From: a virus
Lineage: Duplodnaviria; Heunggongvirae; Uroviricota; Caudoviricetes
IMG/VR virus record: IMGVR_UViG_3300035034_002381
Location: 1 to 64,000 of that record
Direction: 5' to 3' (one strand)
Length of the DNA: 64,000 nt
Shown here: piece by piece, positions 1 to 44,603 of the stretch
Layout: the number at the start of each line of letters is the position of its first letter
How positions within the stretch are numbered: the stretch's first letter is position 1
Notes under the pieces: model-generated
The model's database searches: none
What the model saw: the letters and a program-made list of their open reading frames with translations, nothing else
Told to the model about the DNA's origin: nothing
Made by a program: the position numbers and the translations under genes

Positions 1-192
1 AAAAACTTTACAAAAAGTAAAACTTTTTATAAAAATCTGTGTATACTTAAAACTTAAACAAATAATTTCGATGCAACAATCAATTTACATACAAAACTTT
101 TTCAACACTATTTTTAGTGTCCATGGGATTTATGTGGAAAAAGAAGAGGATTGGAGTTAACAAATATACAAGATATTTTAACATAAGAAAAA

Positions 193-225
193 TCCCTTCT
201 ATTAATTTAGAAGGGATTTTTCTAT
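193..225 (+). terminator. Rho-independent terminator-like hairpin (aaaatcccttct...agaagggatttt plus T-run) just before the first tRNA cluster
   Basis: Perfect inverted repeat followed by TTTTCTATTT; read directly. Confidence 0.55.
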
Positions 226-228
226 TTG

Positions 229-302
229 GGGCCTTTAGCTCAGTTGGTCAGAGCAGTGCGCTCATAACGCAAAGGTCACTGGTTCGAGCCCAGTATGGCC
301 CA
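229..302 (+). tRNA. tRNA with CAT anticodon (Met, fMet or Ile2 type)
   Basis: Hand-folded cloverleaf: acceptor gggcctt/atggccc, D-arm tagctcagttggtcagagc, anticodon loop ctcataa, T-arm actggttcgagcccagt. Confidence 0.75.
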
Positions 303-351
303 CAACATATTCAGATAAGGTTCTGGGTTCGAATCCCAGTCTGAATACAGC

Positions 352-434
352 ACAAAGGCGAAACAGGTATTCGTAGCGGATTGTAACCCCGCTGTCTTTT
401 GACATTGTGGGTTCGAGTCCCACTTGTGCTACAA
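352..434 (+). tRNA. Class II (long variable arm) tRNA, anticodon GTA (Tyr)
   Basis: Acceptor agcacaa/ttgtgct, anticodon loop ttgtaac, variable-arm hairpin tgtc-tttt-gaca, T-arm gtgggttcgagtcccac; 83 nt. Confidence 0.65.
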
Positions 435-439
435 ATAGT

Positions 440-510
440 CATATAGCTCAATTGGTTGGAGCATCACGCTGATAACGTGAAGGTTATAGGTTCGAGTCCT
501 ATTATGACTA
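440..510 (+). tRNA. tRNA-Ile (GAT)
   Basis: Acceptor agtcata/tatgact, D-arm tagctcaattggttggagc, anticodon stem tcacg/cgtga with loop ctgataa, T-arm ataggttcgagtcctat. Confidence 0.75.
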
Positions 511-2714: not shown

Positions 2715-3176
2715 ATGGTAGATTTCAACACAATCACAGAGAAAAACGAATCTGAAGCAAAAGCAAAATTCAGAGAAAATGGTACCGGAGTTAAAATGGG
2801 AACATTTGCTTCTGGTGACGAAAGCAAATGGGAAGATCTAATTAACACAGGTCTTTTCAGTAATCAAGCTATCAAAAACAGAATGCTTGACGTTGCACGC
2901 AGAATTAACACTATGTGTAATGACGAACTTTTAGGTAATCTTGACGTGGCTTTTACTGTTACTGATGCTCGTGATAATAAGGTGGAATTTACCTACATGG
3001 ATATTTATACTTTTTTACGAGCGGCATACCGTTACAGAAGTGAAACTAAGAATTATAGAGAAATGAAAGCTAGAAAAGCTGAACTTGAAAAATTCACTGA
3101 AGAAACTAAGACCGTAAAAGAAAAACGTGCTGAGGCACTCAAGGAACTTAAAGAACTTGAAAAGTCTCTTGCATAA
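2715..3176 (+). CDS. Hypothetical protein with a coiled-coil C-terminus
   Basis: 153-aa ORF with an upstream TAAAACTTT...TATATAA promoter-like motif. Confidence 0.5.
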   Translation: MVDFNTITEKNESEAKAKFRENGTGVKMGTFASGDESKWEDLINTGLFSNQAIKNRMLDVARRINTMCNDELLGNLDVAFTVTDARDNKVEFTYMDIYTFLRAAYRYRSETKNYREMKARKAELEKFTEETKTVKEKRAEALKELKELEKSLA

Positions 3177-3360
3177 AAGTTTCTGTCTCTGGGAGACCTA
3201 ACACTGATGATGACAAGCGTCTTGAAAACCTATTTAATCCATAAACTTGGGAAGAAAATGAGAGTGAGTAACTCGAATGAATCGAATGTATGATTCAAAA
3301 GGTATTGGTAGGTTAATTCTTATCAATACCTCTAAAATTCTTCTTAGAATCCATAAAACT

Positions 3361-3425
3361 TAGCTCATTGGTTGGGCATTTGTATAAGAACAAAAGGAGC
3401 GGTTCAATTCCGTAGACTAGAAGAA
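3361..3425 (+). ncRNA. Degenerate tRNA-like element (D-arm-like tagctcattggttgggc, AT-rich anticodon-like hairpin, T-arm-like gcggttcaattccgt)
   Basis: Hand-folded. It lacks a clean acceptor stem and is preceded by a CTTAGAATCC motif. Confidence 0.3.
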
Positions 3426-3430
3426 TTTAA

Positions 3431-3560
3431 TTGCCGGGTTAGTGTAAGGGTCAACACACGTAAAGTAAACATAGTGAACTTTACGAATCACTTAGAATAA
3501 CTAACTATACAATCCATATGGAGGACGGATAACTGGTTCGAGTCCAGTGCCTGGCACAAA
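3431..3560 (+). ncRNA. tRNA-like module of about 130 nt and a candidate Y-RNA-like RNA. It has acceptor-like ends gccggg/cctggc and a D-arm-like gtgt-aagggtca-acac. A 7-bp stem cgtaaag/ctttacg with a 13-nt loop sits in the anticodon position. A 47-nt insert precedes the T-arm ctggttcgagtccag
   Basis: Hand-folded. It is too long for a tRNA and lies 1 kb upstream of the Ro60 ortholog on the same strand. Confidence 0.4.
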
Positions 3561-3584
3561 TTAAATTGCAGAGTGGTGTAGTGG

Positions 3585-3650
3585 CAGCACACGTAAACGC
3601 CGATTAGTGAAGCATTTACGTTACACTAAAAAATTGGCAAATCTCGTTCA
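3585..3650 (+). ncRNA. Second, related tRNA-like half-module (gcagagt, D-arm-like gtgt-agtggcag-cacac, 7-bp stem acgtaaa/tttacgt with a 17-nt loop). No T-arm follows
   Basis: Shares the D-arm and cgtaaa-stem architecture of the 3431-3560 module. Confidence 0.3.
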
Positions 3651-3789
3651 AAAGAAATTTTCAAATGTAACAACAGAAATTGAAGATGTTGATGAATGGG
3701 TATATTTATATGTAAGAATTTAAAACTTTTTTCAAACTAAAGAATATAAAGAACAATAATACCAATAAAAATTCGACTTAGAATACCTA

Positions 3790-4528: not shown

Positions 4529-6472
4529 ATGATGTCTACAAAAACAAAATCTTTATCAAAAGAAAGAGTTGCCTCTGTTTCAGGAGATAAACCAAGACTC
4601 CCAAGAACTCTTGAAACTCTTCAAGGTTTAAGAACAGCTCAAGGATTATCTGACGCGCAAATTGCGAATATGTTAGATAACGCATTATCAGAAACTTCAA
4701 GTAACCATATTATATATGTTCTTGAAAGATTAATGTTACACATTGGTGATGTGAGTCGACAACACAATATGTTGAAAGAATTGGGAATTAATTCTAAATC
4801 TGGTGGCGCACAAGAACGTGGGGTATTCCGATCTATTTTACGATGGTGGGAAAAAACTTTGCCTGAATCATTTGCAGAAAATCTTCGAGTATTCGCTGAA
4901 TTCTCAGTTTTGGAAAACTTGATGTTTTATGAACTTAAAACTGAAAGAGCAACTGGAAAATTAATTGGAAAGGAAATTTTGTTTCCTATGCCAAGTAAAG
5001 TACATGAATTTCTAGCGAACGAAATTCACAAAAATAGAAATGTGAATCTTATTGCTAAGCATTTACCAAAATATGACACTGGTAAAAGTCGAACCACTAA
5101 GAAAACCATGCATATTAAAGACGGTAAGGATAGTTTCATGTGGAAACTTCCTGAAGGTAAAGCTTGGGTTAAATTAAATGGTGATCTAATCGAAGGAGAA
5201 TCTGTTAAGATTACTCAAGGTGATGTAGTTTCATATCCTCGTGATAAATCTTCACATGTTTTAGAAAAACAAAGATTCGTTAATTCTTGGATTTCTAGTT
5301 TCTGTAAAGTTATGGGATGGTCAATTACTGATTATAACAATTTCCGTAAACAACAAAACACACCGGAACAAAAATTCTCAAGTAAACGTGTTTTAAACAT
5401 GCCGAAATCAGATTTCTGGAAAATGCTTGATGGTTTGACTTCTGGTCAAAGATACAGAGTTTCTAGAATGTTAGATTTCAATGCGGAAAAGTGGGGAGAA
5501 TTACCGAAATGGTATGATTTGTGGGAAGGTAACCAAGAAAAAGTAGCCGATAAACTTCGACAAGCTGCAGCTGATGGTGATACTGAAGCAACAGAAAAAT
5601 TGAAGAAAGAATTCAAGGTTAAATCTACTGGAAAAAACACTGTTGATTTATTGAAAGATATGTTAACAGGTAATCATGACGATAGATTCATTAACAACAC
5701 TTATCAATCTATGATTGAGAATATGGATATTGTTGCGAATGTTTTTCCAGTAATTGATGGTTCCGCATCTATGGATTGCCAAATTGGTGGAGGATGGAGT
5801 CCTCGAAGTTCTCGAAGTTCTACGGATAGACAACTTTCAAATAGAGCTGTCGCATATGCTATGGCAATTGCATTTTCTACTAGAAACCCAGTACCAGGAT
5901 TCCGTAACACGTTCGGATGGTTCTCCAGAAACTTTCACATTGTTGGAAAATCTAAGTATGTGAACAATGCACCTAATCAATACGTTGATTCTGGAAGTTA
6001 TACTAAAAAGGTTAATGAGTTCAATGTTTTATCTGAAACTAATACTTTCACTGAAAACTACTCAAACTTGAGAAAATCTGATCCAGGAGAAATATCATCT
6101 ACAAATATGGGTTCTGTGATTACTCACTTCACAAATTTAGTAGAAACTGGTAAATTTCATGTTGAGGATCTTCCATCTGCGTTACTTTTTATCACAGATA
6201 ATGAAAACAACACAGGAATTAGTCCGAAGGAAGCGTTGGCAATAGCTAACAAAATTGGATGGTCTCCATTGGTTATTTTCTGGGGGTTAACTAAAGTTCC
6301 AAGCAACATGATGAATCAGTATAAGGGAATTCCTAACTGCTTACTTGTTGGAGGATTTAATGAATCAGTACTTTCACAAGTACTTAGGGGTATTAAATCT
6401 GGTTCAGTTGATCCAGAGGATGAAATCTGGAGTATTGTCGAAAATAAAAGATATGCAGTAATTACTGAGTAA
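4529..6472 (+). CDS. rsr: Ro60 (Rsr) ortholog: an N-terminal helical TROVE-like region plus a C-terminal von Willebrand factor A domain with a MIDAS motif
   Basis: MIDAS DGSASM (human Ro60 has DVSASM), followed by NRAVAYAMAIAFSTRN (Ro60 ASTVAAAMCMVVTRTE). Then LLFITDNENNTG (Ro60 FIVFTDNETFAG) and NCLLVGGFNESVLSQVLRGI (Ro60 MLDMCGFDTGALDVIRNF). The 647-aa size is about 400 aa of helical domain plus about 240 aa of vWA. Confidence 0.75.
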   Translation: MMSTKTKSLSKERVASVSGDKPRLPRTLETLQGLRTAQGLSDAQIANMLDNALSETSSNHIIYVLERLMLHIGDVSRQHNMLKELGINSKSGGAQERGVFRSILRWWEKTLPESFAENLRVFAEFSVLENLMFYELKTERATGKLIGKEILFPMPSKVHEFLANEIHKNRNVNLIAKHLPKYDTGKSRTTKKTMHIKDGKDSFMWKLPEGKAWVKLNGDLIEGESVKITQGDVVSYPRDKSSHVLEKQRFVNSWISSFCKVMGWSITDYNNFRKQQNTPEQKFSSKRVLNMPKSDFWKMLDGLTSGQRYRVSRMLDFNAEKWGELPKWYDLWEGNQEKVADKLRQAAADGDTEATEKLKKEFKVKSTGKNTVDLLKDMLTGNHDDRFINNTYQSMIENMDIVANVFPVIDGSASMDCQIGGGWSPRSSRSSTDRQLSNRAVAYAMAIAFSTRNPVPGFRNTFGWFSRNFHIVGKSKYVNNAPNQYVDSGSYTKKVNEFNVLSETNTFTENYSNLRKSDPGEISSTNMGSVITHFTNLVETGKFHVEDLPSALLFITDNENNTGISPKEALAIANKIGWSPLVIFWGLTKVPSNMMNQYKGIPNCLLVGGFNESVLSQVLRGIKSGSVDPEDEIWSIVENKRYAVITE

Positions 6473-6491: not shown

Positions 6492-6527
6492 AAGGAGAGG
6501 CATTTTTGCCTCTCCTTTTTTTATGTT
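6492..6527 (+). terminator. Rho-independent terminator (aaggagaggca-ttttt-gcctctcctt plus TTTTTTT)
   Basis: Perfect 11-bp stem followed by a T-run, immediately after the Ro60 ORF. Confidence 0.8.
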
Positions 6528-6576
6528 TAAAACTATATCAATCTTAGATATATAATACAAATAAATTAAATTAAAT

Positions 6577-7140
6577 ATGAAAAATGTAAAAAACTTTCGT
6601 GAGTTTCTGAACGAGAATCGAGTCGAAAAGAGATTAGCTAGTCTGGACGCAGAATATACTATTGACAAAAAGTTGTGTAAACAATTAATGGATGTGGGAG
6701 AGCAAATAGATTATATATACAATAATTTAGATTTGCCACACTCTGACTTTGCCACTTCTAATTTTATACCACCCGAAATTGAAAACGATGATAAAACAGC
6801 GAGTGATTGGGTAGAATCTGAGAAGGCTCTTATAAGAAGTGAACTAAAATCTAAAGAATCTGAATATAAAAAAATTCTTAGAAAAATACAATCTAAACAT
6901 TCGTATATTAATGATGTAATTGAATATCTTAATCAAACTAATTTAGGTTTTACTTTAGAAAATACATTTATTGATAAAATAAACAGAAGAAATGATATCA
7001 TAAATACTGTTGTAATAAAAAGTTGGTATGGGTATGCTAAAGCTTCAAGAAAAGAATTAGAAAGATATAAAATAACACCTGAGCAACTTGCAGGTACTAT
7101 ATTATCAATGCGAGCAGTCGCTGATGAACTAACATATTAG
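6577..7140 (+). CDS. Hypothetical protein, member of the MKN-K-F-EF N-terminal paralog family
   Basis: N-terminus MKNVKNFREFLNE; promoter-like motif TTTAAAACTATATCAATCTTAGATATATAA upstream. Confidence 0.5.
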   Translation: MKNVKNFREFLNENRVEKRLASLDAEYTIDKKLCKQLMDVGEQIDYIYNNLDLPHSDFATSNFIPPEIENDDKTASDWVESEKALIRSELKSKESEYKKILRKIQSKHSYINDVIEYLNQTNLGFTLENTFIDKINRRNDIINTVVIKSWYGYAKASRKELERYKITPEQLAGTILSMRAVADELTY

Positions 7141-8028: not shown

Positions 8029-8058
8029 TGGGACTTTTATAGTCCCACTTTTTTTGTT
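8029..8058 (+). terminator. Rho-independent terminator (agtgggact-tttat-agtcccact plus TTTTTTT)
   Basis: Perfect 9-bp hairpin plus T-run. Confidence 0.75.
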
Positions 8059-8273
8059 TATATTTATACTGAATTTAAAAACTCAAAATAAATGTCAAGA
8101 GAAAATATGGATTATATGGGCGATGCAGTCTACGCAGAATACACGGGATGGTCAATTGATTTACGAGTCAATGATCATCGGAATCCTGTCGCTGTCGTTT
8201 TAGAAGAACTAGTCTTACAAAATTTAGTCGATTTTGCTAGACGAAAAGGTCTTAAAATCAAATAAATTATGAA

Positions 8274-8870: not shown

Positions 8871-9116
8871 GTATGGAAAAATCTCAAGACTTTGAACCAA
8901 CCGAACCAGAAGAAATGTATTAAAATAATTGAAAATAACTCTTCCAGATTAAAACTTTTTGATTACTTTTGTATATATACTGTATATTTAAACAAACAAT
9001 AATGAAAACACAAATCAACATAACTACCAGTTATTCTTTAAGAAGCTTATGTACGTCGCTGAGACTATATGAGACAGGGTATCTATGTTGATCAAACATA
9101 TTTTTGATTACAAACT

Positions 9117-9150
9117 AAACCCTGTCTATTTAATTAGACAGGGTTTTTTT
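9117..9150 (+). terminator. Rho-independent terminator (aaccctgtcta-tttaatt-agacagggtt plus TTTTTTT)
   Basis: Hairpin plus T-run preceding the third tRNA cluster. Confidence 0.75.
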
Positions 9151-9276: not shown

Positions 9277-9362
9277 AGAGGATGCGGTAATGGTGGTTAT
9301 TACAGTATCTTGGAAAGGTACCGATCGTTTATTCGGTCAGGGTTCGACTCCCTCATCCTCTG
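9277..9362 (+). tRNA. Class II tRNA-Ser (GGA)
   Basis: Acceptor agaggatg/catcctct, anticodon stem gtatc/ggtac with loop ttggaaa, variable arm ccgatcgtttattcggtc, T-arm agggttcgactccct. Confidence 0.65.
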
Positions 9363-9493
9363 CTATGTTCTTCTTAGAATAACTAATTTATGTAAATGTG
9401 AGTTCGAATCTCATCAAATGCTTTTAGCATCTGTAGCCAAATGGTTAGGCAATATACTTGAAATATATAACAAACGATTAGAAGAACAACATG

Positions 9494-9566
9494 CTTCCAT
9501 AGTATAAAGGTTCATTATTCCTGTTTTGTAATCAGGCGATATCGGTTCGATTCCGATTGGGAGCTC
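9494..9566 (+). tRNA. tRNA-Thr (TGT)
   Basis: Acceptor gcttcca/tgggagc, anticodon loop tttgtaa, T-arm atcggttcgattccgat. Confidence 0.6.
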
Positions 9567-9714
9567 AATGAATATGATGTTTATTTAGATCCTAAAAATG
9601 ATTATCTTATTGGTATAGATAGTAAAAAAATTGAAAAGGTCGAAGAATTGTATAATGTGCGTAATAATAGACAAGGATAATTTATCTTGGAATGATATTC
9701 AAAATAAAATAAAT

Positions 9715-9795
9715 GTTTCAGTGGTGGAATGGTAGACACGTCGGTCTTAGGAACCGATGCCGAAAGGCGTGAGAGTTCGAGTCTCTCCTGGAATA
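9715..9795 (+). tRNA. Class II tRNA-Leu (TAG), canonical architecture
   Basis: D-arm gtg-gaatggtaga-cac, anticodon stem tcggt/accga with loop cttagga, variable arm gccgaaaggc, T-arm gagagttcgagtctctc. Confidence 0.65.
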
Positions 9796-9796
9796 C

Positions 9797-9876
9797 ACTC
9801 TGGTGGATTAGGTAAATTGGTACAGCTAAACGGCTTAGACCCGTATCCCTTCTGGGTTCGAATCCCAGTCAGAGTA
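9797..9876 (+). tRNA. Atypical 80-nt tRNA-like gene, family member 1. The anticodon-like hairpin is acgg-cttagac-ccgt (TAG). There is no variable arm, and a 7-nt insertion separates the acceptor from the 3-bp D-stem
   Basis: Acceptor actctgg/tcagagt, conserved block tggattaggtaaattggtacagctaa, T-arm ctgggttcgaatcccag. Confidence 0.5.
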
Positions 9877-9881
9877 CAAAT

Positions 9882-9961
9882 GCTCCTGTGGTTTATGTAA
9901 ATTGGCACAGCTAAGCGGCTTAAACCCGCAACCTTTATGGGTTCGAGTCCCATCAGGAGTA
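9882..9961 (+). tRNA. Atypical 80-nt tRNA-like gene, family member 2; anticodon-like hairpin gcgg-cttaaac-ccgc (TAA)
   Basis: Acceptor gctcctg/caggagt, conserved block tggtttatgtaaattggcacagctaa, T-arm atgggttcgagtcccat. Confidence 0.5.
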
Positions 9962-10056
9962 CAAAAGTTTATCAACGTCTTGAGTCAAGTTGGATGATGA
10001 CAAAAAGGCTAACGGCAGAAGTGAATCCATCGCACTGTGTTACATAAACTTTATCT

Positions 10057-10129
10057 GGCCAGGATTCTCAATTGGACGGGACTCTGTCTTCTAAACAGAT
10101 GTTTGTGGGTTCGAATCCCATCTTGGTCT
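10057..10129 (+). tRNA. tRNA-Arg (TCT)
   Basis: Acceptor ggccagg/cttggtc, anticodon stem tctgt/acaga with loop cttctaa, T-arm gtgggttcgaatcccat. Confidence 0.6.
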
Positions 10130-10135
10130 CTAAAC

Positions 10136-10209
10136 GCAGGTATACCTAAGTGGTTTAAAGGAGCGGATTGCAAACCCGTTATTCATTGGTTCGAATCCAA
10201 TTACCTGCT
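10136..10209 (+). tRNA. tRNA-Cys (GCA)
   Basis: Perfect acceptor gcaggta/tacctgc, anticodon loop ttgcaaa, T-arm attggttcgaatccaat. Confidence 0.7.
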
Positions 10210-10214
10210 CACTT

Positions 10215-10297
10215 GGAAGGTAACTTGATGGTGATAGAGGTAGTTTGCTAAACTACTGGCCGTTTACTCGGTCGAGGTTCGATTCCTCTGCCTTCCG
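10215..10297 (+). tRNA. Class II tRNA-Ser (GCT)
   Basis: Acceptor ggaaggt/gccttcc, anticodon stem gtagt/actac with loop ttgctaa, variable arm ggccgtttactcggtc, T-arm gaggttcgattcctc. Confidence 0.7.
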
Positions 10298-10301
10298 CTA
10301 T

Positions 10302-10379
10302 GCTCCTGTGGATTATGTAAAAGCACAGCTAACACCTTGAGGAGGTGATCCTTTGTGGGTTCGAGTCCCGCCAGGAGTA
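10302..10379 (+). tRNA. Atypical tRNA-like gene, family member 3; anticodon-like hairpin cacc-ttgagga-ggtg (GAG)
   Basis: Acceptor gctcctg/caggagt, conserved block tggattatgtaaaagcacagctaa, T-arm gtgggttcgagtcccgc. Confidence 0.5.
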
Positions 10380-10404
10380 CAAAGAAGCAAAGAGTTAGTT
10401 AGGT

Positions 10405-10479
10405 TAGACTGGCTTGTTATGTGGTGAAATTGGTAAACGCGAGCGCTTTGGTGCTTAGTAACCTTAACACTTCTTATTT
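10405..10479 (+). ncRNA. Partial tRNA-like element: a Leu-type D-arm gtg-gtgaaattggtaaac-gc plus a hairpin, with no T-arm. It abuts the next tRNA
   Basis: Shares its D-arm sequence with the 10788-10899 element. Confidence 0.3.
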
Positions 10480-10553
10480 GCTGAGTTAGTATAGTCGGTT
10501 TATTACGATACCCTGGTACGGTATTAACACCAGTTCGATTCTGGTACTCAGCT
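10480..10553 (+). tRNA. tRNA-Thr (GGT)
   Basis: Perfect acceptor gctgagt/actcagc, anticodon stem atacc/ggtat with loop ctggtac, T-arm accagttcgattctggt. Confidence 0.7.
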
Positions 10554-10565
10554 CATGAAAAATAT

Positions 10566-10645
10566 GCCTCTGTGGATTATGTAAATTGGCACAGCTAACG
10601 GTTTCAAACTCCGATCTTTTATGGGTTCGAATCCCATCAGAGGCA
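10566..10645 (+). tRNA. Atypical tRNA-like gene, family member 4; anticodon-like hairpin cgg(t)-ttcaaac-(t)ccg (CAA)
   Basis: Perfect acceptor gcctctg/cagaggc, conserved block tggattatgtaaattggcacagctaa, T-arm atgggttcgaatcccat. Confidence 0.5.
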
Positions 10646-10661
10646 CAAGTAGGAGAAATTT

Positions 10662-10746
10662 AGTCCAGTGGCGAAACAGGTATACGCACAAGATTTAAGC
10701 TCTTGCTTCCATTGAGGAATTGCGGGTTCGATTCCCGCCTGGATTA
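10662..10746 (+). tRNA. Class II tRNA-Leu (TAA), canonical architecture
   Basis: Acceptor agtccag/ctggatt, D-arm gcg-aaacaggtata-cgc, anticodon stem caaga/tcttg with loop tttaagc, variable arm ttccattgaggaa, T-arm gcgggttcgattcccgc. Confidence 0.65.
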
Positions 10747-10787
10747 CTAAGTTAGTACGGGTTCGATCCCCGTCTTGGCTACTAAAT

Positions 10788-10899
10788 TTGACCGTGGTGA
10801 AATTGGTAAACACACCCTTAAATCAGGGAGTATGAGAATATGTACTTGAAGCTGACGCAGAACATCATACATATGTAGGTTCGAATCCTATCGGTCGAA
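10788..10899 (+). ncRNA. 112-nt tRNA-like RNA with a roughly 45-nt extra stem-loop (atatgta...tacatat) inserted before the T-arm
   Basis: Acceptor ttgaccg/cggtcga, Leu-type D-arm gtg-aaattggtaaa-cac, anticodon-like ccc-ttaaatca-ggg, T-arm gtaggttcgaatcctat. Confidence 0.4.
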
Positions 10900-10904
10900 C
10901 AAAT

Positions 10905-10978
<74 letters not shown>

Positions 10979-11325
10979 CTATCTAAAACTTTATTCAATT
11001 TCCATAATATAATGTGTAACTAAACTTTATAGAAATGGAAAAAATACTAATGTCTGAAATTTTGACTTATGACAACTTCGACGACGGTTTACCTGAAGAA
11101 TATGAATTTGTCGATTCTGAACAAACATATTTTGATGGTGAAAAAGGCTTTGTTAATATCGAAGCTATTATCAGAAGAGAATCAGACTCACAATTTTTAA
11201 AGTAAAATACACCGATTATGGAAAAGGTGAAAATGATCTTATGGAAAGTGTGGGCGAACCTGTAACTCAAAAATCCAAAACAATTTTCTACTATGTAACT
11301 CAAAAATCCAAAACAATTTTCTACT

Positions 11326-12712: not shown

Positions 12713-14710
12713 ATGAAAAAACTATTACTATTATTAATGCTATTTTCTTCTGTGAATTTATTTTCACAAGAAAATTATTTGATCCTTGATACCATTGGTA
12801 TGGATCAATACGAAAAACAAATTTTTGAGGAAAAAGTAAATTCCCCAGAATCTAACGAAGAGATTTCATGTTTAACCTTATTTGCTGGATCCAGACATGA
12901 ATTTAATTCAAAGTTAAAATCAATTAACGAATCAAAAAGCAATGTTGATATTAACGAAACTATTAGAATTCCCGTTGTTTATCATATTATGCACATTACC
13001 AAATTTGGTCTTGGTGGAGTTCCTTTCGAATCAGGACTAATTAGCAAACAACAAGTGTGGTCTGCTTTGGATGATCATATTAAAGGATTCCAAGCATATG
13101 TTGGGACTCGTCAAGAAACGGGATATGATACTAATATAGAATTTTATTTAGCAAACCTGGATGAAGAAGGAAATTTATTTGACGGTGTTATTTATTATGA
13201 TATGGACACAGTCCCCTGGGTAACTACTGAGGAAAGAGAACAATTTTTTAATTTCGGAATGTTTGGTATTGGACTTGATGATTTCTTAATCAAAAATAAC
13301 ATTTCATTAGACCCTGATAGATATCTAAATGTTTACATTACTCCAGAGATTTCTGGTAATGATGGAGGTAATGGGATCCAAGGATATGCATTTTTTCCAG
13401 GTGGTACTCAAGCACTTTGGGGACAAACAAATTTATCAAATATAGTAGGATTACCTTCAGTAAACTATTATGATGCTGATTTTGATGGTATAATGGACGA
13501 AGGAGTGGGGCCTTTACTTAAACCCAGTGCTCAAGAAAATGATACCCATCCACACGAAACCGGACATAATTTCCGTCTTTATCATACATTCCAAGGACAA
13601 AGTTGTGCAATTGAAGGTAATTGTGATACCCAAGGAGATGGAATCTGTGATACGGAGCCAACCCCACGTAATACCCAATGTAATTATAATGGGTGTCCGA
13701 CTCCTACCCCCGTTTCTAATAAGAATTATATGTCATATTCAGAATGCAGGTTTGAATTTACCGAAGACCAAAACCATGAAATGCGATCTTCTTTCACTGA
13801 AGATCTACCATTACTTGTTAGCAGTATTGATTCGGGATTATGTTATATTCCAAGACAAACCCAAGTTGAAATGATCATCCCACAATCAAACGATATAACA
13901 GGATGTCCCGATTCTCCTTTCCTTTCTTTTACTGTAAGAAACCTAGGTCCTGAAGTTGATTCAACAGGAATCCCGGTTATGTTAACAAATCTTGTTATAG
14001 CTTATGGAAATGATTTGTCTAACGTTGACACGTTTGAATTTAATTTAAATTTAGGTCCTTTCCAATATGATGATTTAGTTTTACCTTCTGTAGATAATCA
14101 AAGTTCAAATAGAAAGATCAAATTACTTTCTGTTAACGGATTTCCGGTAGAAGATTCAAGCACTCTTTCTACTAATCTTCCAGTAGGACCTAATGAATTA
14201 ATTGTAGTTTGCCAACCAAACTGTTCATCAATACAAGATAATTATTGGAAAGTTACAAATTTAAATACTGGAACTATTGCATTCCAAAGTGAATATTATC
14301 CTGTTAATTATTCAGGACCTCCTATCGAAACAAGGATCTGTTTACCTGGAGGCAATTATCAATTTTCATTAATTGATGAATCTGAAAATGGTTGGAATGG
14401 TACTTTTTGTAATCCCGATTTTTTCGATGAACCATTTATGGAAGTTTATTACAATGGATCCTTATGTCAATCTATACAAGGTGATGAATTTAATAGTTCT
14501 GAGTGGTCATTTACAAATTGTAACACTAGTACTCAGGGACTGATTGAAAATGAAGAAGAACCTGTTTTAGAATATGAGTACTATACTCAACAAATGGAAA
14601 GAGTAGAATTTGAAGATATTGTTACAAACCAATTCTTTATAATTTATACTTATGAAAAATCTGAAAGTTCTAGAGAGTTGATCGATAGAGATTGGATCAT
14701 AAAACAGTAA
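12713..14710 (+). CDS. Secreted zinc metalloprotease, peptidase family M43 (pappalysin / ulilysin / cytophagalysin-like metzincin)
   Basis: Signal peptide MKKLLLLLMLFSSVNLFSQ. Extended zinc motif HETGHNFRLYHTFQG (HExxHxxxxxH, family M43) followed by the Cys-rich CDTQGDGICDTEPTP (the ulilysin GDxxxDTP signature). Confidence 0.75.
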   Translation: MKKLLLLLMLFSSVNLFSQENYLILDTIGMDQYEKQIFEEKVNSPESNEEISCLTLFAGSRHEFNSKLKSINESKSNVDINETIRIPVVYHIMHITKFGLGGVPFESGLISKQQVWSALDDHIKGFQAYVGTRQETGYDTNIEFYLANLDEEGNLFDGVIYYDMDTVPWVTTEEREQFFNFGMFGIGLDDFLIKNNISLDPDRYLNVYITPEISGNDGGNGIQGYAFFPGGTQALWGQTNLSNIVGLPSVNYYDADFDGIMDEGVGPLLKPSAQENDTHPHETGHNFRLYHTFQGQSCAIEGNCDTQGDGICDTEPTPRNTQCNYNGCPTPTPVSNKNYMSYSECRFEFTEDQNHEMRSSFTEDLPLLVSSIDSGLCYIPRQTQVEMIIPQSNDITGCPDSPFLSFTVRNLGPEVDSTGIPVMLTNLVIAYGNDLSNVDTFEFNLNLGPFQYDDLVLPSVDNQSSNRKIKLLSVNGFPVEDSSTLSTNLPVGPNELIVVCQPNCSSIQDNYWKVTNLNTGTIAFQSEYYPVNYSGPPIETRICLPGGNYQFSLIDESENGWNGTFCNPDFFDEPFMEVYYNGSLCQSIQGDEFNSSEWSFTNCNTSTQGLIENEEEPVLEYEYYTQQMERVEFEDIVTNQFFIIYTYEKSESSRELIDRDWIIKQ

Positions 14711-15599
14711 ACAAACAATGTGGGTGTATAGAAATGTACACTCACATTCTAACTAAATTTTTATGTAGCAGATGATGAAGTAGCTAAGAATCAAAAATTA
14801 CGAAAATGGCTTGTGTTACCCAAATGGTAAACTGACTTTTCGGGGATTTCTTAAATCAAAAATAAAACATGGAAAAAGTAAGAATCGTTCAAGATGAAAG
14901 TAGTCATTGGTACATAATCCCTAATAAAAAATTGGAAGATTTTTATGAAGATTCTGTAAACATTGAAATGTGTGATAATGGGAATTTTGATAGAAAATGG
15001 GCGCAATATGCTACAGGCGGCAGCCCTAATAATATTCAATTATATGCAAATTTAGAAGTTTATTTTTCTATGTGAATTATTTTGATTATATTTAAACAAA
15101 TAAAATTGGTATGGAAAGAAATGAATTTTTAGAACTTGATGGTTTAGCAGCAGAAACTGAAACACATGAATGGTTTTGGGACAAAAGTTCTACACTACTT
15201 GCTCACAAAAAATCTATAACTTCTAACGGTAGAGAAGACGATTCACTCGACGTTAAATGTATGGTTTGTAGGAATAAAGAAACTGGTGAGTATGACAGAG
15301 TTGTATTAAACAACAAAAACGAACCTATTTATGATACTAAAAGTTTAGAAAGTCTAGGTTTTTGGATTGATAAACATAAAGTAATTAAAAGATACCAAGA
15401 TCATGACAAAATTTCAAAGTAATTCAATAGGAACTGTAATGATACCCGACGGTACGTATTTAGGTACAGTCACTGGTTTTAGAGTTAAACTTAAAAGAGG
15501 CGGAACGATTTTAGAGTTTGAAGTCAAAGACAATAGTAATCAAAGTAATCTTCCTGTTAATATCATAGTTAATGGTATGCGGGCAAAAGTAATACAAAC

Positions 15600-17058: not shown

Positions 17059-17119
17059 AAAATGAGAATAAAAAAAATCATTTTATCCTTGATATATAAA
17101 AAAACAAATATAGAAAAAG

Positions 17120-19195
17120 ATGAACAAAGATTCTAATGTATTATTAATACTTGAAAGATCTTCATCAAATCTAGATGTTAACAAGGAATCGGGTGATTAT
17201 ATTCTCGAAGGTATTTTTGCTCAATTTGGAGTTGAAAACAATAACAAAAGGATTTATGAGGAAAAAGAGTATTTACCACATCTCGAATACTTAAAAAAGA
17301 AAATTTCAGAAAATCGATTGATGGGAGAACTTGATCACCCAGAAAAATTTGAAATTGCTTTAGACAAAGTATCTCACGTAATTGAGAATATTGAATATGA
17401 TCAAGCAAAACGCCAGATTAAAGGGCGTGTACGTATTTTAGATACGCCATCCGGAAAAATCGCAAAGAGTCTAATCGACTCTAATATTCCTATTAGTATT
17501 TCATCACGAGCTGCTGGTTCTGTGAGTGAAAATAAAACTGTTTCTATTAAGAGAATTTTTACTTATGATTTAGTTGCTGATCCAGGTTTTGAAGATGCAC
17601 AATTATCAAGAATAAATGAATCATTTGGTTTAGACAACGAAAATAATCTACAAATTTTTGATGCTTCTAGATGGGACAACAATTTTTCGTTTGATGAAAA
17701 AGAAAAAGAAAAGCCTGTTGAGGCAATAAAAGAAAATAAAGAAAATACTACAGATATGAAAGAATTTGTGACAATTGAAAGCATGGAACGCTATTCATTA
17801 ATGGTCAAAGAAGAAATTGCTAAAATCAATACACGATTAGAAACTCTGAATGAGAGTAATGCTAATTCTGATGAAACAGCAGAACTTAGAAAAACCGTTG
17901 ATAATTTAGTAGGGTATGTTAATGAAATGGCTACCGAAATTAATCAAAACAGAGAATACATGTCATATACTGCTGAAATGCTTGACGAAAGTATTTCTTG
18001 GTCAGAAAATGAGATCGGTAATCAAGTTACTAAATTAATTGAATATACTGAATCTGAATTGGCTGTTCATCTTGATGGTTTAATTGAACACAATAACTAT
18101 CTTGCAGAAAAATTAAACACGACTATTGGATACGTTAATGAAGAATTGGCTCCAATTTTAGATGAGTCTATTAATCACAATGATTATTTAGTTGAACAAA
18201 TTGCTAATAACCGAAAATATACTGAGTATCTTGCTGAAAATGCTGTAGACTCAACAAATTTTGATTCGTTAGTAGAATATACTGAACATGTATATGAAAA
18301 TGCTGCTGGAAAATTTGAAGGTAAAATTAATGAATCTGCAACTGCTGAGGATGTAATTAAAAAACATAAACTTAAAACACATCACGATGTTGCTAAGTTT
18401 ATAGGAGATTTTTATGATTTACCAGATACAATTAAAGGATCTACCGATAAATTCACATTTAAAGACGTTGAGGACAACGTAATTAAAGTTGATGGTAAAG
18501 CAGGAACAGTAGACGGTAAAAAATTATCTCTGGCGGGATTGGTTGATCTTATGTCAGGTGGTGATTTTGATCTTCTTATTGAAAATCAAGCTAATAAAAT
18601 TAACGAAAATAAAAACGTATCAACAGATATTGAAAATCGATACATGAGTATCAATGAAAAAATTGACGCGGCTCTTGAGCAGATCAAGAAAACAAAGACT
18701 GAAGAAATCACAGAGTCTAAACGTCATCCTTTCACCAAACTACTCAACGAAAGTAATAGAGCTGCTTTCACTGAGTTAGGAAAAACCGAAAAAGAAAAGG
18801 TTTCAAAAGCTCTAAATGAAAACGGTATTTTAAGTACTGTAAAACTTAACGAAAAATTCACTTCATTGTTAGAAGGTAATTTCGAAATTGTTGAAGAGCC
18901 TAAATGGTTATCTGAAGCACCAGACAAGTATAAAGCTATTTTTGAAAGTTTGAATGAGGAAACTCAGGATAAACTTAGAGCTCAAGCTTCATGGTACGAA
19001 GGTAAACTTAAATCTCCTTATCAAATCGAAAATTTCTGGGCAACTAGAGGACTGAACGAAGACGTTGAGTTGAAGAATCTGAAAGACGATGCTGATGTAA
19101 AACTTATTAAAGAAAGTAATGATAGATCTAAAGATCTGGGTTATTCTTCTGATCGAGTTGCTGCAATTAAACAAGGTCTGAAAAGATTCAAATAA
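17120..19195 (+). CDS. Probable prohead protease fused to a scaffolding-type coiled-coil domain
   Basis: Sits immediately upstream of the major capsid gene. The N-terminal roughly 200 aa contain EGIFAQFGVENNNKRIYEEKEY...GELDHPE (T4 gp21 / S77-like). The rest is an acidic, heptad-rich segment typical of scaffold proteins. Confidence 0.5.
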   Translation: MNKDSNVLLILERSSSNLDVNKESGDYILEGIFAQFGVENNNKRIYEEKEYLPHLEYLKKKISENRLMGELDHPEKFEIALDKVSHVIENIEYDQAKRQIKGRVRILDTPSGKIAKSLIDSNIPISISSRAAGSVSENKTVSIKRIFTYDLVADPGFEDAQLSRINESFGLDNENNLQIFDASRWDNNFSFDEKEKEKPVEAIKENKENTTDMKEFVTIESMERYSLMVKEEIAKINTRLETLNESNANSDETAELRKTVDNLVGYVNEMATEINQNREYMSYTAEMLDESISWSENEIGNQVTKLIEYTESELAVHLDGLIEHNNYLAEKLNTTIGYVNEELAPILDESINHNDYLVEQIANNRKYTEYLAENAVDSTNFDSLVEYTEHVYENAAGKFEGKINESATAEDVIKKHKLKTHHDVAKFIGDFYDLPDTIKGSTDKFTFKDVEDNVIKVDGKAGTVDGKKLSLAGLVDLMSGGDFDLLIENQANKINENKNVSTDIENRYMSINEKIDAALEQIKKTKTEEITESKRHPFTKLLNESNRAAFTELGKTEKEKVSKALNENGILSTVKLNEKFTSLLEGNFEIVEEPKWLSEAPDKYKAIFESLNEETQDKLRAQASWYEGKLKSPYQIENFWATRGLNEDVELKNLKDDADVKLIKESNDRSKDLGYSSDRVAAIKQGLKRFK

Positions 19196-21007: not shown

Positions 21008-21035
21008 GAAATATCTTAAACTATATAAATACCGA

Positions 21036-21068: not shown

Positions 21069-21116
21069 ATAAAACTTTATTCAATATTGTATATATAATA
21101 TACAATTATTAGAGCC

Positions 21117-23484: not shown

Positions 23485-23492
23485 ATAATACA

Positions 23493-23702: not shown

Positions 23703-23711
23703 ATACCACTA

Positions 23712-25806: not shown

Positions 25807-26081
25807 TGAAAAAGGCAAGAACATTTACAGAATTTAATGAGTCTATATCAAACGAAGAAGAACTAAATGAAGCAGTCGATGTATTTATCGCAATTGCTGA
25901 AGCTTTAGACGTAAGTTTAGATGTCGCAAAAATGATAGTAGCTTTGGCAGGAGTCACCGGAACAGTAACTTTCGCAGCAGCAATGACAAAAATCCAAGAT
26001 GTATTGGCAAAGAAAAATCCTAAATTATCTAAGAAATTAGGTGATATTACAAAAGGAGCAAATAACGCGAGAACACAATAG
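25806..26081 (+). CDS. Small hypothetical protein
   Basis: N-terminus MKKARTFTEFNE (MK..F.EF family-like). Confidence 0.35.
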   Translation: MKKARTFTEFNESISNEEELNEAVDVFIAIAEALDVSLDVAKMIVALAGVTGTVTFAAAMTKIQDVLAKKNPKLSKKLGDITKGANNARTQ

Positions 26082-26085
26082 AAAT

Positions 26086-26505: not shown

Positions 26506-26562
26506 ATTTTGGAATAAGCTAAAACATTTGAGGCTTTCATGAATATAAACTAAAAGATATTC

Positions 26563-32816: not shown

Positions 32817-33455
32817 ATGAACATATTTGTTCTTGACGAAAATGTCAAAAAATGTGCCGAATATCATTGTGATAAACATGTTGTCAAAATGATTACTGAG
32901 CATAATCAAATTTTGGGTTCGATTTCTTATTTACGTAGAGGTATTTCTAAAAAATCGGAAATAACTGATGAATTTATTCAACAACATTTCCAAAATTTTC
33001 CTAGAAAAAAATTAGCAATTGATATGGATTCATTACCCATTGCTGATCATTCGCCACTTATCAAAAAATTATGGAATTTTGTAAAACCCGCAGAATTGTC
33101 TTGGCCGTACGGTATTGGTTATAAAAATCATCCATGTACACAATGGGCTAATGCGTCTAAAGAAAATTATGATTGGCTATGCTCACTCAATCTTGAATTG
33201 TGTAAAGAATATACTAAACGATATAATCGTCGACATGCTGGTGAGGATATTACTCAATGGTATATTGAAAACGCACCATATCTACCGAATTCTGGCATGA
33301 CTCCATTTGTTTTAGCTATGCCTGATGATTGTAAATCTGATGATCCAGTTGAATCTTATCGAATTTACTACATTTATCATAAATATAAATTTGCCAAATG
33401 GAAAACAAAAGTTCCAAATTGGTATATAAACGTTATAAAACATCAAGAAATATGA
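32817..33455 (+). CDS. Hypothetical protein
   Basis: 212-aa ORF with a conserved-looking N-terminus MNIFVLDENVKKCAEYHCDKHVVKM; no family assigned. Confidence 0.4.
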   Translation: MNIFVLDENVKKCAEYHCDKHVVKMITEHNQILGSISYLRRGISKKSEITDEFIQQHFQNFPRKKLAIDMDSLPIADHSPLIKKLWNFVKPAELSWPYGIGYKNHPCTQWANASKENYDWLCSLNLELCKEYTKRYNRRHAGEDITQWYIENAPYLPNSGMTPFVLAMPDDCKSDDPVESYRIYYIYHKYKFAKWKTKVPNWYINVIKHQEI

Positions 33456-37714: not shown

Positions 37715-37790
37715 TGGAACAAGTTACATAATTTTCTAAAATAAACTGATTCTATTAAAACTTTTCAAGTCTAGATTAATATAAAATATA

Positions 37791-41761: not shown

Positions 41762-42398
41762 GATATTTAAAAGTTTGAGTAATTCTGAAAATGAAGCATT
41801 ATGTGTACAAAGAACTAATCTTTTATTCGAAGCATTAGATATTATAGAAAAACATAATGGGAAAGCTTGGTTAGATTGTGGTACTTTGTTAGGTGCGTAT
41901 AGAGATGGTGAATATATTCCATGGGACGTCGATGTAGATTTAGGAATTAATATCGAGGATGTTACTGAGGAAATGCTAAATGATTTCAGAGATAAATATA
42001 ATATACGACACGATAATGGAAACTTAGATCAATACAAATTTTGCTCATTTTATAAGAGAGATGAAAATGGTGATAATTACAAATTTAGAAGATGTAATTT
42101 ATGGATTGATTTACATATGTACTATCCAAATTATGATGGTACAAGAACTATGACAATTACTACAGGAAAAATTAGAGCACCTAAAAAAATCTTTCCAGCA
42201 CCTGCTGAATGTATCGAGAATTTAGAACAAATTGAATGGCAAGGTAGAAAAGTAAATATTCCTAGTAAAACTGTAAAATATTTAGAACAATGGTATGGAT
42301 ATGATTGGGACGTACCTAACGATAAATGGAAAATGTCTCCGAGTTGGTACGATAATCCAACAAATGACAAAATTATTCAAGGTAAAACCCTCTTTTAA
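41751..42398 (+). CDS. licD: LicD-family phosphotransferase (transfers phosphocholine, ribitol phosphate or similar from a CDP/NDP donor)
   Basis: AWLDCGTLLGAYRDGEYIPWDVDVDLGI matches the LicD DxGTLLG...PWDDDxD motif. Confidence 0.65.
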   Translation: MLNKIFKSLSNSENEALCVQRTNLLFEALDIIEKHNGKAWLDCGTLLGAYRDGEYIPWDVDVDLGINIEDVTEEMLNDFRDKYNIRHDNGNLDQYKFCSFYKRDENGDNYKFRRCNLWIDLHMYYPNYDGTRTMTITTGKIRAPKKIFPAPAECIENLEQIEWQGRKVNIPSKTVKYLEQWYGYDWDVPNDKWKMSPSWYDNPTNDKIIQGKTLF

Positions 42399-42416
42399 AC
42401 AAAATAAACAAAACAA

Positions 42417-43178
42417 ATGCATATATTAAATGAATATTTTGACAAGATTTATATTACCAACCTCGACTCGGCCAAAGATAGATATGAAAGATTATCTAAA
42501 GAACTGGATTCATTTGGCGTTGTTTATGAAAGATTCAAAGCATTGACTCCAGATGATGCAAGAAAGGTATTTGCTGAAAAAGGCCTAAAGATTCCTAAAA
42601 GTAATAGTGGAGCTCTTGGTTGCGCAACTTCACATTATATATGCTGTCAACAGGCTGCGAAAAATGGACTTAAAAGAATTTTGATTCTTGAAGATGATGC
42701 AAGAATAACCGATATAGATTTTAATCAAGAGACTCAAAATTTAGTTGAACAAATAAGAAAAACCGACTGGTTTTATCTAAAGCTTGGTTATAATATCACT
42801 AACCAGATGTTAGACGAAAATTTTGAGTTTCATAGAGTTTCAGAAAATTTGTTTAATCTTTCAAAAAGTTCTATGACCACCGCTATAGCTTTCAATATCG
42901 AAAAAATCGTAGAGGATGAGAATGCTTCCACAGTTTTTATTTCTGATCACGCATTAGAAAATAGTAAATTGAATATTCATATTGACCATAGATTGTTTAT
43001 GATGTGTAACGAATTCGGAATTCTACAATGCCATTATTATCCAGCAATATTTACTCAGACTGATGGGTATTCATACATAGGAAAAGAAGAAAGGAAATTC
43101 TCTAATATTGATAAAAGAACAAACAGAATATTCAAAGAGCATATACAATCTTCTAGCTCAACAAAAAAATTATTTTAA
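42417..43178 (+). CDS. Family 25 glycosyltransferase (LPS-biosynthesis-type)
   Basis: N-terminus FDKIYITNLDSAKDRYERL matches the GT25 start (IxVINLxxSxxR). Confidence 0.5.
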   Translation: MHILNEYFDKIYITNLDSAKDRYERLSKELDSFGVVYERFKALTPDDARKVFAEKGLKIPKSNSGALGCATSHYICCQQAAKNGLKRILILEDDARITDIDFNQETQNLVEQIRKTDWFYLKLGYNITNQMLDENFEFHRVSENLFNLSKSSMTTAIAFNIEKIVEDENASTVFISDHALENSKLNIHIDHRLFMMCNEFGILQCHYYPAIFTQTDGYSYIGKEERKFSNIDKRTNRIFKEHIQSSSSTKKLF

Positions 43179-43196
43179 ACAAAGAAAATAGAAAAT

Positions 43197-43976
43197 ATGG
43201 AATTTTTAAATATACTACAATCGGAATTACAATCGGGATTTATTTACATACCTAATAGAGGCAATGCTGGGGATGTTGTCATTCAACAATCTACTATTAA
43301 ATTTTTTGAAAAAAATAATCTAAACTTCGAATTAGGAAAAAACACTACAACTTATGTTGGGGAAAATCTAGTTTATGGTGGGGGTGGAAATTTGATTGGA
43401 AAATACCAACCGGCTAAAAAATTCATAAAATTAAATGCGGAAAAAAATCATATAATGATATTACCGCATACAATTAAGAACAGCGAAAAGTCTTTAAATA
43501 TGCTGAATAAGGATTCTATTGTTTTTTGCAGAGAAAGAATATCTCATGAATATGTTAGTAAATTTATTGAAAAATGTTATTTACATAAAGATATGGCTTT
43601 TCATCTAGATTTAGAATCTTATAAAAAGGAATCTAAATATGAAGTAGGAAATATATTTAGAATGGATGTCGAATCTTCTAATAACGTTAAAAAAATTCCA
43701 TCTAATAATGTGGATATATCCAGTGTTTTTAATCGTAGAAATCAGCATACAAATTTAGAAGTAGCTCAAGCTGTATTTGATGATTTTGTTAATTATATAG
43801 CAGATTTCGAAATTGTAAACACAGATAGATTACATATTGCAATTATTGCTGCAATATTGGGAAAAAATGTTAATCTTTATCCTAACTCATATTATAAAAA
43901 TAAAGCCGTATATGACTATACATTATCGTTAGAATATCCCAACGTCAATTTTATCGATGAAGTAAAATATAGATGA
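43197..43976 (+). CDS. Polysaccharide pyruvyl transferase-like protein
   Basis: YIPNRGNAGDVVIQQ matches the GNxGDxxI motif of the CsaB/WcaK family. Confidence 0.4.
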   Translation: MEFLNILQSELQSGFIYIPNRGNAGDVVIQQSTIKFFEKNNLNFELGKNTTTYVGENLVYGGGGNLIGKYQPAKKFIKLNAEKNHIMILPHTIKNSEKSLNMLNKDSIVFCRERISHEYVSKFIEKCYLHKDMAFHLDLESYKKESKYEVGNIFRMDVESSNNVKKIPSNNVDISSVFNRRNQHTNLEVAQAVFDDFVNYIADFEIVNTDRLHIAIIAAILGKNVNLYPNSYYKNKAVYDYTLSLEYPNVNFIDEVKYR

Positions 43977-44030
43977 TGCATTTTAAAACTTTTTATTAAT
44001 GTATTAATATAAACTTTAATATACTTTTTT

Positions 44031-44603
44031 ATGAAAACAATTATTATTGAAGGATGTGATAGAGTAGGAAAAGATACAGTTTGTAATGGAATAAAACTGA
44101 CTGCGGACTGTTTACTTTATCGACATTGGCTTAAACCTAAAGGTCAAACTAATGATGAAAGAGTTAATTATCAAAAGACAACATTTAAAAAGGAATTTGA
44201 TTTACGTAAATCTTTTTTGGATGATTGGTATCTTAATGATAATGATAAAAATTCTGATTTAATTCTTTGGAACAGAAGTCATATTGGAGAATATGTTTAT
44301 GGAAAACTATATCGAGACTATGATCCAAATTGGATTTATAATCTGGAAAATCTTTATAATTTTTCTGATAATAACATTTATTTGGTAATGTTATATGCAG
44401 ATCCAGATTTTTTGTGTGAGAATGATGATGGACATTCATTCAGTTCTGATATTGAAGGTAAAACGCAAGAAATCAATTTATTCCACGAAGCAGTGGATAA
44501 AAGTCTAATACCAAATAAAATAAAAATAAAAGTAAATGACGGAAAACGTTACCGAGACAGAAAAGAAATTAGAAAAGAAATTTTTGATCGAATCTTCAAT
44601 TAA
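44031..44603 (+). CDS. P-loop (deoxy)nucleoside monophosphate kinase-like protein
   Basis: Walker A IIIEGCDRVGKDT, comparable to T4 gp1 SGVKRSGKDT and Tmk IEGxxGxGKxT. Confidence 0.5.
   Translation: MKTIIIEGCDRVGKDTVCNGIKLTADCLLYRHWLKPKGQTNDERVNYQKTTFKKEFDLRKSFLDDWYLNDNDKNSDLILWNRSHIGEYVYGKLYRDYDPNWIYNLENLYNFSDNNIYLVMLYADPDFLCENDDGHSFSSDIEGKTQEINLFHEAVDKSLIPNKIKIKVNDGKRYRDRKEIRKEIFDRIFN

Follow-up and report, generated by a model that had tools for sequence, protein, structure and literature searches.

A two-part motif of fixed spacing in a clade of uncultured giant Bacteroidota phages, most likely a phage-specific promoter class

The DNA studied here, positions 1 to 64,000 of the virus record IMGVR_UViG_3300035034_002381 from IMG/VR (all 64,000 nucleotides of it are called the window), carries a recurrent two-part motif ahead of many of its genes. 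The window has a G+C content of 32%, all of its credible open reading frames (ORFs) lie on the + strand, and 21 tRNAs, grouped as three arrays, were called by ARAGORN. Its major capsid protein (gene 19214-21007) and its prohead protease (gene 17120-19195) belong to the T4 type; in GenBank they match best the Lak megaphages of Prevotella, at about 40% identity, and LR756500.1, an uncultured phage of 462 kb. The source of the window is a T4-type, Lak-related huge phage. Megablast of window positions 1-24000 against GenBank phages gave no match. Since homologues of a baseplate-region protein (52053-53924) are almost confined to phages of Bacteroidota, occurring only in Lak, Tenacibaculum, Flavobacterium and Chryseobacterium phages and in Sphingomonas phage PAU, a host from the Bacteroidota appears likely. 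Near-identical contigs in ENA ERZ27315366 and JGI 3300023049 lengthen the window by 5.2 kb on its upstream and by 10 kb on its downstream side, the total sequence covered for this phage being 79 kb (window plus 15 kb of flank).

In its refined form the motif, termed class A, reads TAAAACTT-N15-ATATAA with a spacer of fixed length. Exact copies are present at eight sites (1137, 2659, 3721, 10984, 21070, 22870, 37756 and 43984), two further sites deviate by one mismatch (8950, with ATATAT, and 26520, with TAAAACAT) and one has a spacer of 14 nt (6528), and all of them are on the + strand, which is the coding one. The next start codon follows 6-36 nt after ATATAA; the exception is site 3721, located 152 nt ahead of a tRNA. 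Every site listed in a preliminary description of the same DNA was recovered within about 20 nt of the position given there, and site 26520 was absent from that list. The site that had been placed near 6518 is present at 6528, where it reads as the N14 variant TAAAACTA-N14-ATATAA; for the motif reported at 1-60 the upstream half was found and the -10 proved decayed. The class A sites and the left-edge copies are the following.

2-99, + strand: four AAAACTT copies (2, 19, 49, 93) with no intact -10
1137-1165, + strand: candidate class A promoter, 36 nt 5' of the SPFH/Band7-like gene 1201-2661
2659-2687, + strand: candidate class A promoter whose TAA serves gene 1201-2661 as stop codon, 28 nt 5' of gene 2715-3176
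3721-3749, + strand: candidate class A promoter ahead of tRNA-Met 3901, tRNA-Val 4281 and gene 4529-6472
6528-6555, + strand: candidate variant class A promoter (N14), 21 nt 5' of gene 6577-7140
8950-8978, + strand: candidate class A promoter (ATATAT), followed by a small ORF, the terminator 9117-9146 and the tRNA array 9277-10979
10984-11012, + strand: candidate class A promoter, 4 nt 3' of tRNA-Arg 10905-10979 and 23 nt 5' of ORF 11035
21070-21098, + strand: candidate class A promoter 3' of the capsid-gene terminator 21034-21059, heading the homing-endonuclease-like gene 21117-22802
22870-22898, + strand: candidate class A promoter that also carries GATATATAA, ahead of ORFs 22932-26505
26520-26548, + strand: candidate class A promoter with one mismatch, 14 nt 5' of the PNKP-phosphatase-like gene 26563
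37756-37784, + strand: candidate class A promoter, 6 nt 5' of the ATG of the glycosyltransferase-like gene 37791, with a DNA methyltransferase operon next
43984-44012, + strand: candidate class A promoter, 18 nt 5' of the thymidylate-kinase-like gene 44031, followed by thymidylate synthase 44536

At the left edge of the window (1-60) the upstream half stands alone with GTATAC in place of the -10, and the copy at 18 appears to be a decayed duplicate of an intact promoter predicted 1.35 kb further upstream (position 3893 of contig L138); the 5.2 kb upstream of the window on this contig contain two more class A sites. Another copy, at 3354, sits within a tRNA-like element and was not counted as a promoter site. 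Strong hairpin-plus-T-run terminators lie immediately 5' of sites 6528 (terminator 6492-6517, directly adjacent) and 21070, and a T-run is also located ahead of 22870. The distance of merely 6 nt between site 37756 and the ATG of gene 37791 suggests a near-leaderless mRNA for this gene.

Enrichment analysis confirmed the motif. Class A matches with at most one mismatch number 10 against 0.33 expected, and none of 100 shuffles reached 10. When the spacer was varied from N10 to N20 on the extended sequence, 13 matches were obtained at N15 and 0-4 at any other length, with 0-1 on the minus strand, so that the range of 15-18 claimed earlier narrows to 15. In an unbiased k-mer test TAAAACTT emerged as the top intergenic-enriched 8-mer (p=1.8e-8): 11 of its 16 copies on the + strand are intergenic, while intergenic DNA makes up 9.6% of the sequence. 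The list of enriched k-mers also holds ATATATAA and GATATATA. The sigma-A consensus of Bacteroidota consists of TTTG at -33 and TAnnTTTG at -7. It is absent at the class A sites, and TAnnTTTG shows no enrichment, be it on the + strand or in intergenic DNA; matches to TTGACA-N17-TATAAT do not exceed shuffle expectation in any of three 20-kb scans. The earlier statement that the motif does not fit the Bacteroidetes sigma-A consensus therefore holds and extends to TTGACA/TATAAT.

The genes behind class A sites encode an SPFH protein, tRNA arrays, the homing-endonuclease-like protein, a PNK/phosphatase, glycosyl- and methyltransferases, a nicotinamide adenine dinucleotide (NAD) salvage block and a thymidylate-kinase-like protein plus thymidylate synthase, a set that corresponds to the prereplicative repertoire of T4. 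Class A is thus mostly found ahead of non-structural genes, whereas the protease and the baseplate and tail genes are preceded by a second box, class B, which reads GATATATAA and has no -35 element. Its form GATATATA is present in 11 copies on the + strand and one on the - strand, and 8 of the 11 lie at most 45 nt 5' of a start codon (binomial p of about 1e-7 by our own arithmetic, in which about 6% of the sequence was taken as start-upstream territory). The six sites without an upstream TAAAACTT are these.

17091-17099, + strand: class B box, 20 nt 5' of the prohead protease gene 17120, with an orthologous box in L141 and L167
46766-46774, + strand: class B box 3' of the terminator 46717-46746, ahead of gene 46797
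50448-50456, + strand: class B box, 6 nt 5' of gene 50463
52026-52034, + strand: class B box (GATATATAT) ahead of the conserved baseplate-region gene 52053-53924
56093-56101, + strand: class B box, 3 nt 5' of gene 56105-59023, either the start codon or the function of the box being uncertain
62590-62598, + strand: class B box (GATATATAC) ahead of the S1-domain gene 62635

Assignment of the tail and baseplate module is based on Phage_base_V, YQBQ-like, and baseplate and sheath PHROG matches, and a gp13-like neck protein is encoded just beyond the end of the window. Inside this structural module, behind the late-type box at 62590, a 401-aa protein (62635-63840) carries three S1 RNA-binding repeats. 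In relatives identified through the capsid gene (51-83% identity) GATATATA(c/g/a)AATAAAA stands between the capsid-gene terminator and the next gene, and orthologous class B boxes precede the protease gene. The label "T4-late-like", which had been attached to the two-part motif, is better transferred to this box: lacking a -35 element and standing before protease and baseplate genes, class B is the predicted analogue of T4 late promoters. A third upstream word, TATAT(T/A)T(A/G)TACTG, was noted at 8056-8070, 8972-8984 and 45494-45512; at 45500 it holds a perfect Bacteroidota -7 box (TATATTTG), 33 nt 5' of gene 45533, and may represent a host-type promoter.

Conservation of class A extends well beyond this phage. 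Site 26520 is conserved in the strain variant L141, and the motif occurs exactly or with one mismatch in the capsid relatives L142 (71% identity) and L167 (72%). An alignment of the baseplate protein served to retrieve 60 relative loci, which show 31-46% identity and come from contigs as long as 673 kb; in them, 26 motif matches were present on the + strand versus 2 on the - strand. ATATAA is intact in 13 of the 26, and about 12 of these 13 sit 13-26 nt 5' of an ATG, where they head at least four unrelated gene families with spacers that are unrelated in sequence and always 15 nt long. The consensus of the 26 sites is tTAAAACTTttt...ATATAAaaTaaAA, with AAAAC invariant, a T-tract next to it, and T and A as the bases 5' of AAC. 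Neither class is evident in the capsid regions of Lak-A1 and LR756500.1, and the same holds for the cultured Flavobacteriia phages PTm1 and MaF61. In PTm1 (L237, 1-34 kb) ATACATA-type boxes, e.g., ACATATACATATA and CATACATACTATAAAG, stand ahead of many structural genes and are probably a late-promoter variant of its own; in MaF61 nothing comparable was seen. Scanning IMG/VR and bacterial genomes for the exact pattern, which brought up L090 and L104, gave mostly single chance matches among the matches listed and carries no information on distribution.

Taken together, strand, position 5' of starts, the terminator-promoter modules, the fixed spacing and the conservation of the boxes and not of the spacer are promoter-like, as had been proposed. 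The motif is genuine, is common to phages of a clade of giant, uncultured Bacteroidota phages, and most likely constitutes a phage-specific promoter class.

As to the factor that reads it, group 2.2 jumbo phages, which include Lak and PTm1, lack an RNA polymerase and encode minimal and complete sigma factors as well as gp33 (Iyer et al., PMC7824862), and the moraphage paper (PMC12619734) includes a sigma factor in the core gene set that it lists for related aquatic phages. The suggestion that a phage sigma factor or activator is implied is in agreement with these reports and with our own findings in relatives. A gp55-like minimal sigma factor (phrog_234 at E of about 1e-13 plus a sub-threshold Sigma70_r2 match) is encoded there, as a rule some 3 kb ahead of the genes for protease and capsid; a gp55-like gene was not found in the 79 kb of this phage. 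At 50-90 nt upstream of the gp55-like gene lies AAACTT-N15-ATATAA in L391, L399 and L400, and AAACTT-N16-TATAAT, of the same geometry, in L398 and L234, so that the two-part arrangement heads this gene in at least five lineages. Three exact matches in about 9 kb of gp55-upstream sequence are far above chance, estimated by us at about one match per strand per Mb. Genes next to the gp55-like one were inspected in L391 and L398, and no sigma factor gene is among them. In another sub-lineage (L361-L372, L374, L377 and L015) the gp55-like gene is preceded by a terminator hairpin and, directly after it, TTG(T/C)ATATAA, which has the -10 core in common with the motif and no -35 element.

Sigma factors of the extracytoplasmic function (ECF) type, with Sigma70_r2 and r4_2 above Pfam cut-offs, are encoded by related huge phages on contigs of up to 434 kb (L378 1530, L379 2776, L382 78, L387 2375 and L441-L520), and the gp55-like gene follows some 7.5 kb downstream of them. 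These sub-lineages have a conserved tGAAAT-N17-ACTAGAA 5' of the gp55-like gene. ORF168 of PTm1 is a two-domain sigma factor according to phrog_351, identified by sequence only, and no gene is annotated as sigma in 134 kb of the PTm1 annotation. A 304-aa protein encoded 1.2-2.1 kb past the end of the window (L136 6069-6983) has a weak match to phrog_832 (RNA polymerase ADP-ribosylase, E=1.4e-3), also matches phrog_3170 and is a possible modifier of the host polymerase. The phrog_624 "DNA binding protein" (32817-33455) was dropped as a candidate regulator, as it appears to be part of an RNase H/exonuclease gene, and the sigma-28 consensus (TAAA-N15-GCCGATAA) was dropped for class A because its register is off by 2 bp.

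With TATAAn at -12 to -7 taken as the -10, the 8-mer falls at -36 to -29, and the resulting AAACTT-N16-TATAA would represent the -35/-10 geometry of the sigma-70 family: two elements at a fixed distance of 16-18 bp, on the coding strand and near genes. From this geometry, the AAC/T-tract character of the -35 and the misfit to host consensuses, we infer promoter activity and recognition by a phage two-domain sigma factor, and because non-structural genes follow the motif here and the gp55-like gene follows it in relatives, the temporal class would be pre-late. That class A sites are pre-late (middle-type), phage-specific promoters read by such a sigma factor is a proposition for which, in our judgement, the scales are evenly balanced. 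The -35 is reminiscent of ECF promoters, as exemplified by E. coli sigma-E (GGAACTT-N16-TCAAA), in that an A-tract with AAC is followed by a T-rich stretch (AAAACTTTt) and separated by about 16 bp of invariant length from a short -10, and ECF-type sigma factors are encoded by related huge phages. The -35 anatomy of group IV (ECF) promoters comprises a G region, an AAC motif and a T-tract (Lane and Darst, PMC1540707).

Several observations weigh against this assignment. Searches of the 79 kb with Pfam, PHROGs and phmmer revealed no sigma factor, RNA polymerase or recognizable activator. Class A sites lack the upstream G region, and their ATATAA differs from the C/G-containing -10 of ECF promoters. 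No cognate ECF sigma factor was seen for this phage, AAACTT-N15-ATATAA does not occur in any of the 80 loci retrieved with an ECF sigma (L441-L520), and because the ECF-bearing relatives use the GAAAT...ACTAGAA motif instead, no cognate sigma is tied to class A. Some class A sites have spacer sequence in common, as expected of partly duplicated cassettes, and for this reason are not fully independent. In L366 and L367 a one-mismatch class A site precedes the prohead protease gene. Finally, the ATATAA core is common to both classes, sites 6528 and 22870 carry both motifs, and the slot after the capsid gene is occupied by a two-part site here and by a -35-less box in closer relatives; because of this swap both classes may share one holoenzyme. 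Given the shared core and the equivalent positions in relatives, a single holoenzyme with mix-and-match elements, or an activator, may be at work.

The shared (W)ATATAA core, the exchange behind the capsid gene and the existence of gp55-like genes in the lineage also speak for the model of the preliminary description, in which a gp55-like late sigma factor reads ATATAA everywhere and TAAAACTT acts as an upstream enhancer. T4 late promoters (TATAAATA, served by gp55, gp33 and the clamp) resemble class A in their AT-rich -10 core and class B in architecture and gene class; T4-type late promoters do not possess a -35 element, however, whereas that of class A is invariant and the genes behind it are mostly non-structural. 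In addition, the two-part geometry ahead of the gp55-like gene itself creates a bootstrapping problem, and we regard this model as unlikely. Slightly more credence, though still a minor share, is due to an arrangement like that of T4 middle promoters, at which AsiA appropriates sigma; here a MotA analogue would bind TAAAACTT at about -30 and a host or remodelled sigma factor would read the -10. The conserved box is centred near -30, the position of the MotA box; extra tandem AAAACTT copies upstream of some sites fit a DNA-binding protein; and tRNA, thymidylate synthase, PNK and glycosyl-/methyltransferase genes mirror the early/middle set of T4, and class A, like the T4 middle promoters, would take its place between the host- and the gp55-dependent stage. 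On the other hand, AAAACTT differs from TGCTTtA, ATATAA is not host-like and is not the -7 element TAnnTTTG of Bacteroidota sigma-A, neither Pfam nor PHROGs gave a MotA- or AsiA-like match in the window, and the strict single spacing fits one protein touching both boxes at least as well.

Conservation across many diverged phages would likewise be expected of a host signal, and at three sites the -10 resembles TATAAT; that class A sites are ordinary early promoters of the host housekeeping sigma factor is nevertheless improbable. With the exception of Sphingomonas phage PAU, the cultured phages with a homologous baseplate protein infect Bacteroidota, for which the consensus is TTTG/TAnnTTTG; the motif matches neither this nor TTGACA, it is lacking in PTm1 and MaF61, and the bacterial genome scan, a weak test, gave scattered single matches among those listed. 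The idea that the sites are recombination or homing junctions of mobile cassettes and not promoters draws on the ATATAAT that bounds a cassette missing in L141 and on the spacer sequence shared by some sites, yet it hardly deserves credence given the strict orientation of the boxes, their distance to start codons and the way they persist in distant relatives, where neither the spacers nor the genes behind them are related. Acting as a junction would not conflict with being a promoter and would be secondary to it.

The cassette was revealed by comparison with L141, which is 99% identical and lacks window positions 21101-23673.

21101-23673, + strand: 2.57-kb cassette with the homing-endonuclease-like gene, a terminator, the candidate promoter 22870 and three small ORFs, missing in L141

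Its ends are the 7-nt repeat ATATAAT, i.e., the -10 box, and since the cassette is absent and the junction falls in ATATAAT, promoter 21070 directly heads a 343-aa gene (window 23712) in L141. Because this junction lies in the -10 box and spacers are shared, terminator-plus-promoter modules would also mark cassette boundaries. The 561-aa homing-endonuclease-like protein (21117-22802) belongs to phrog_3339, has a weak sub-threshold Pfam match to REase_MTES_1575 and is the product of a mobile gene. Copies occur beside the capsid gene, as in LR756500.1 and Lak-A1, or, as in other relatives, beside the gp55-like gene (L176 13646-15103 and 22189-23535; L177 21979-22965; L162; L398; L399). Further indels relative to L141 affect window positions 12764-15052, 18370-18598 and 24260-24458; one spans an entire M43-peptidase gene and one is a 228-bp segment within the prohead protease gene.

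Additional repeated elements were observed. A gene family with a common 5' end and N-terminus (MKNLKTFEQF...) and similar upstream leaders is represented at window 23493, 23712, 25806 and 46797 and in the flanks at L136 6069 and L138 about 4160, which suggests paralogues or recombination at gene starts. tRNA-like repeats of 85 nt at 9795-9879, 9880-9964 and 10564-10648, with others at 3330-3600 and 10381-10904, have GGTTCGA(A/G)TCC T-loops, long variable arms and the anticodon loops CTTAGAC, CTTAAAC and TTTCAAA; they were called neither by ARAGORN nor by Rfam at gathering score, and the word CTTAGAAT recurs near them. A terminator-like hairpin (AAAAATCCCTTCT...AGAAGGGATTTTT) at 188-222 lies directly 5' of the first tRNA of the array 229-1094.

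Returning to the proposal of a pre-late class read by a phage two-domain sigma factor, transcription could proceed as follows. A phage sigma with domains reading the -10 and the -35, or else an activator, would direct the host core RNA polymerase to class A sites, which would drive the tRNA arrays along with the genes of nucleotide metabolism and NAD salvage, of DNA modification and of mobile nucleases and, in relatives, also the gene for the gp55-like late sigma. The latter would then read the -35-less GATATATAA boxes ahead of head and tail genes, and the terminator-plus-promoter modules would delimit transcription units and act as junctions for gain and loss of cassettes. Class A may accordingly be an undescribed promoter class with an ECF-like -35, conserved across a broad clade of uncultured Lak-related huge Bacteroidota phages as the middle tier of a three-step cascade from host sigma-A via a phage two-domain sigma to a gp55-like factor, with modules that serve as cassette break-points; this full picture is tentative, and we hold it to be possible and not probable.

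In the Bacillus phage SPO1, successive phage sigma factors with distinct two-part consensus sequences redirect the host core polymerase (gp28 for middle, gp33/34 for late genes); sequences and host phylum are unrelated, however, and the cascade proposed here is read from sequence. Hairpin-plus-promoter modules flank variable ORFs in the PeSL cassettes of T4-type phages, similar to the indel junction within a promoter described above, but PeSL promoters are early promoters of host sigma-70, and recombination in the present case rests on one strain comparison. A literature search for the motif and for promoters of Lak or Flavobacteria phages yielded nothing relevant. The system is of a familiar type. 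The RNA polymerase of Bacteroidota uses an unusual housekeeping promoter, and no published work is known on the transcription programme of Lak-related and other giant Bacteroidota phages. A clade-wide consensus of fixed spacing together with a distinct late box would help to predict by computation the temporal class of genes across hundreds of genomes of uncultured huge phages; it would make the pairing of promoters and sigma factors by covariation possible and would point to orthogonal promoter/sigma parts for Bacteroidota.

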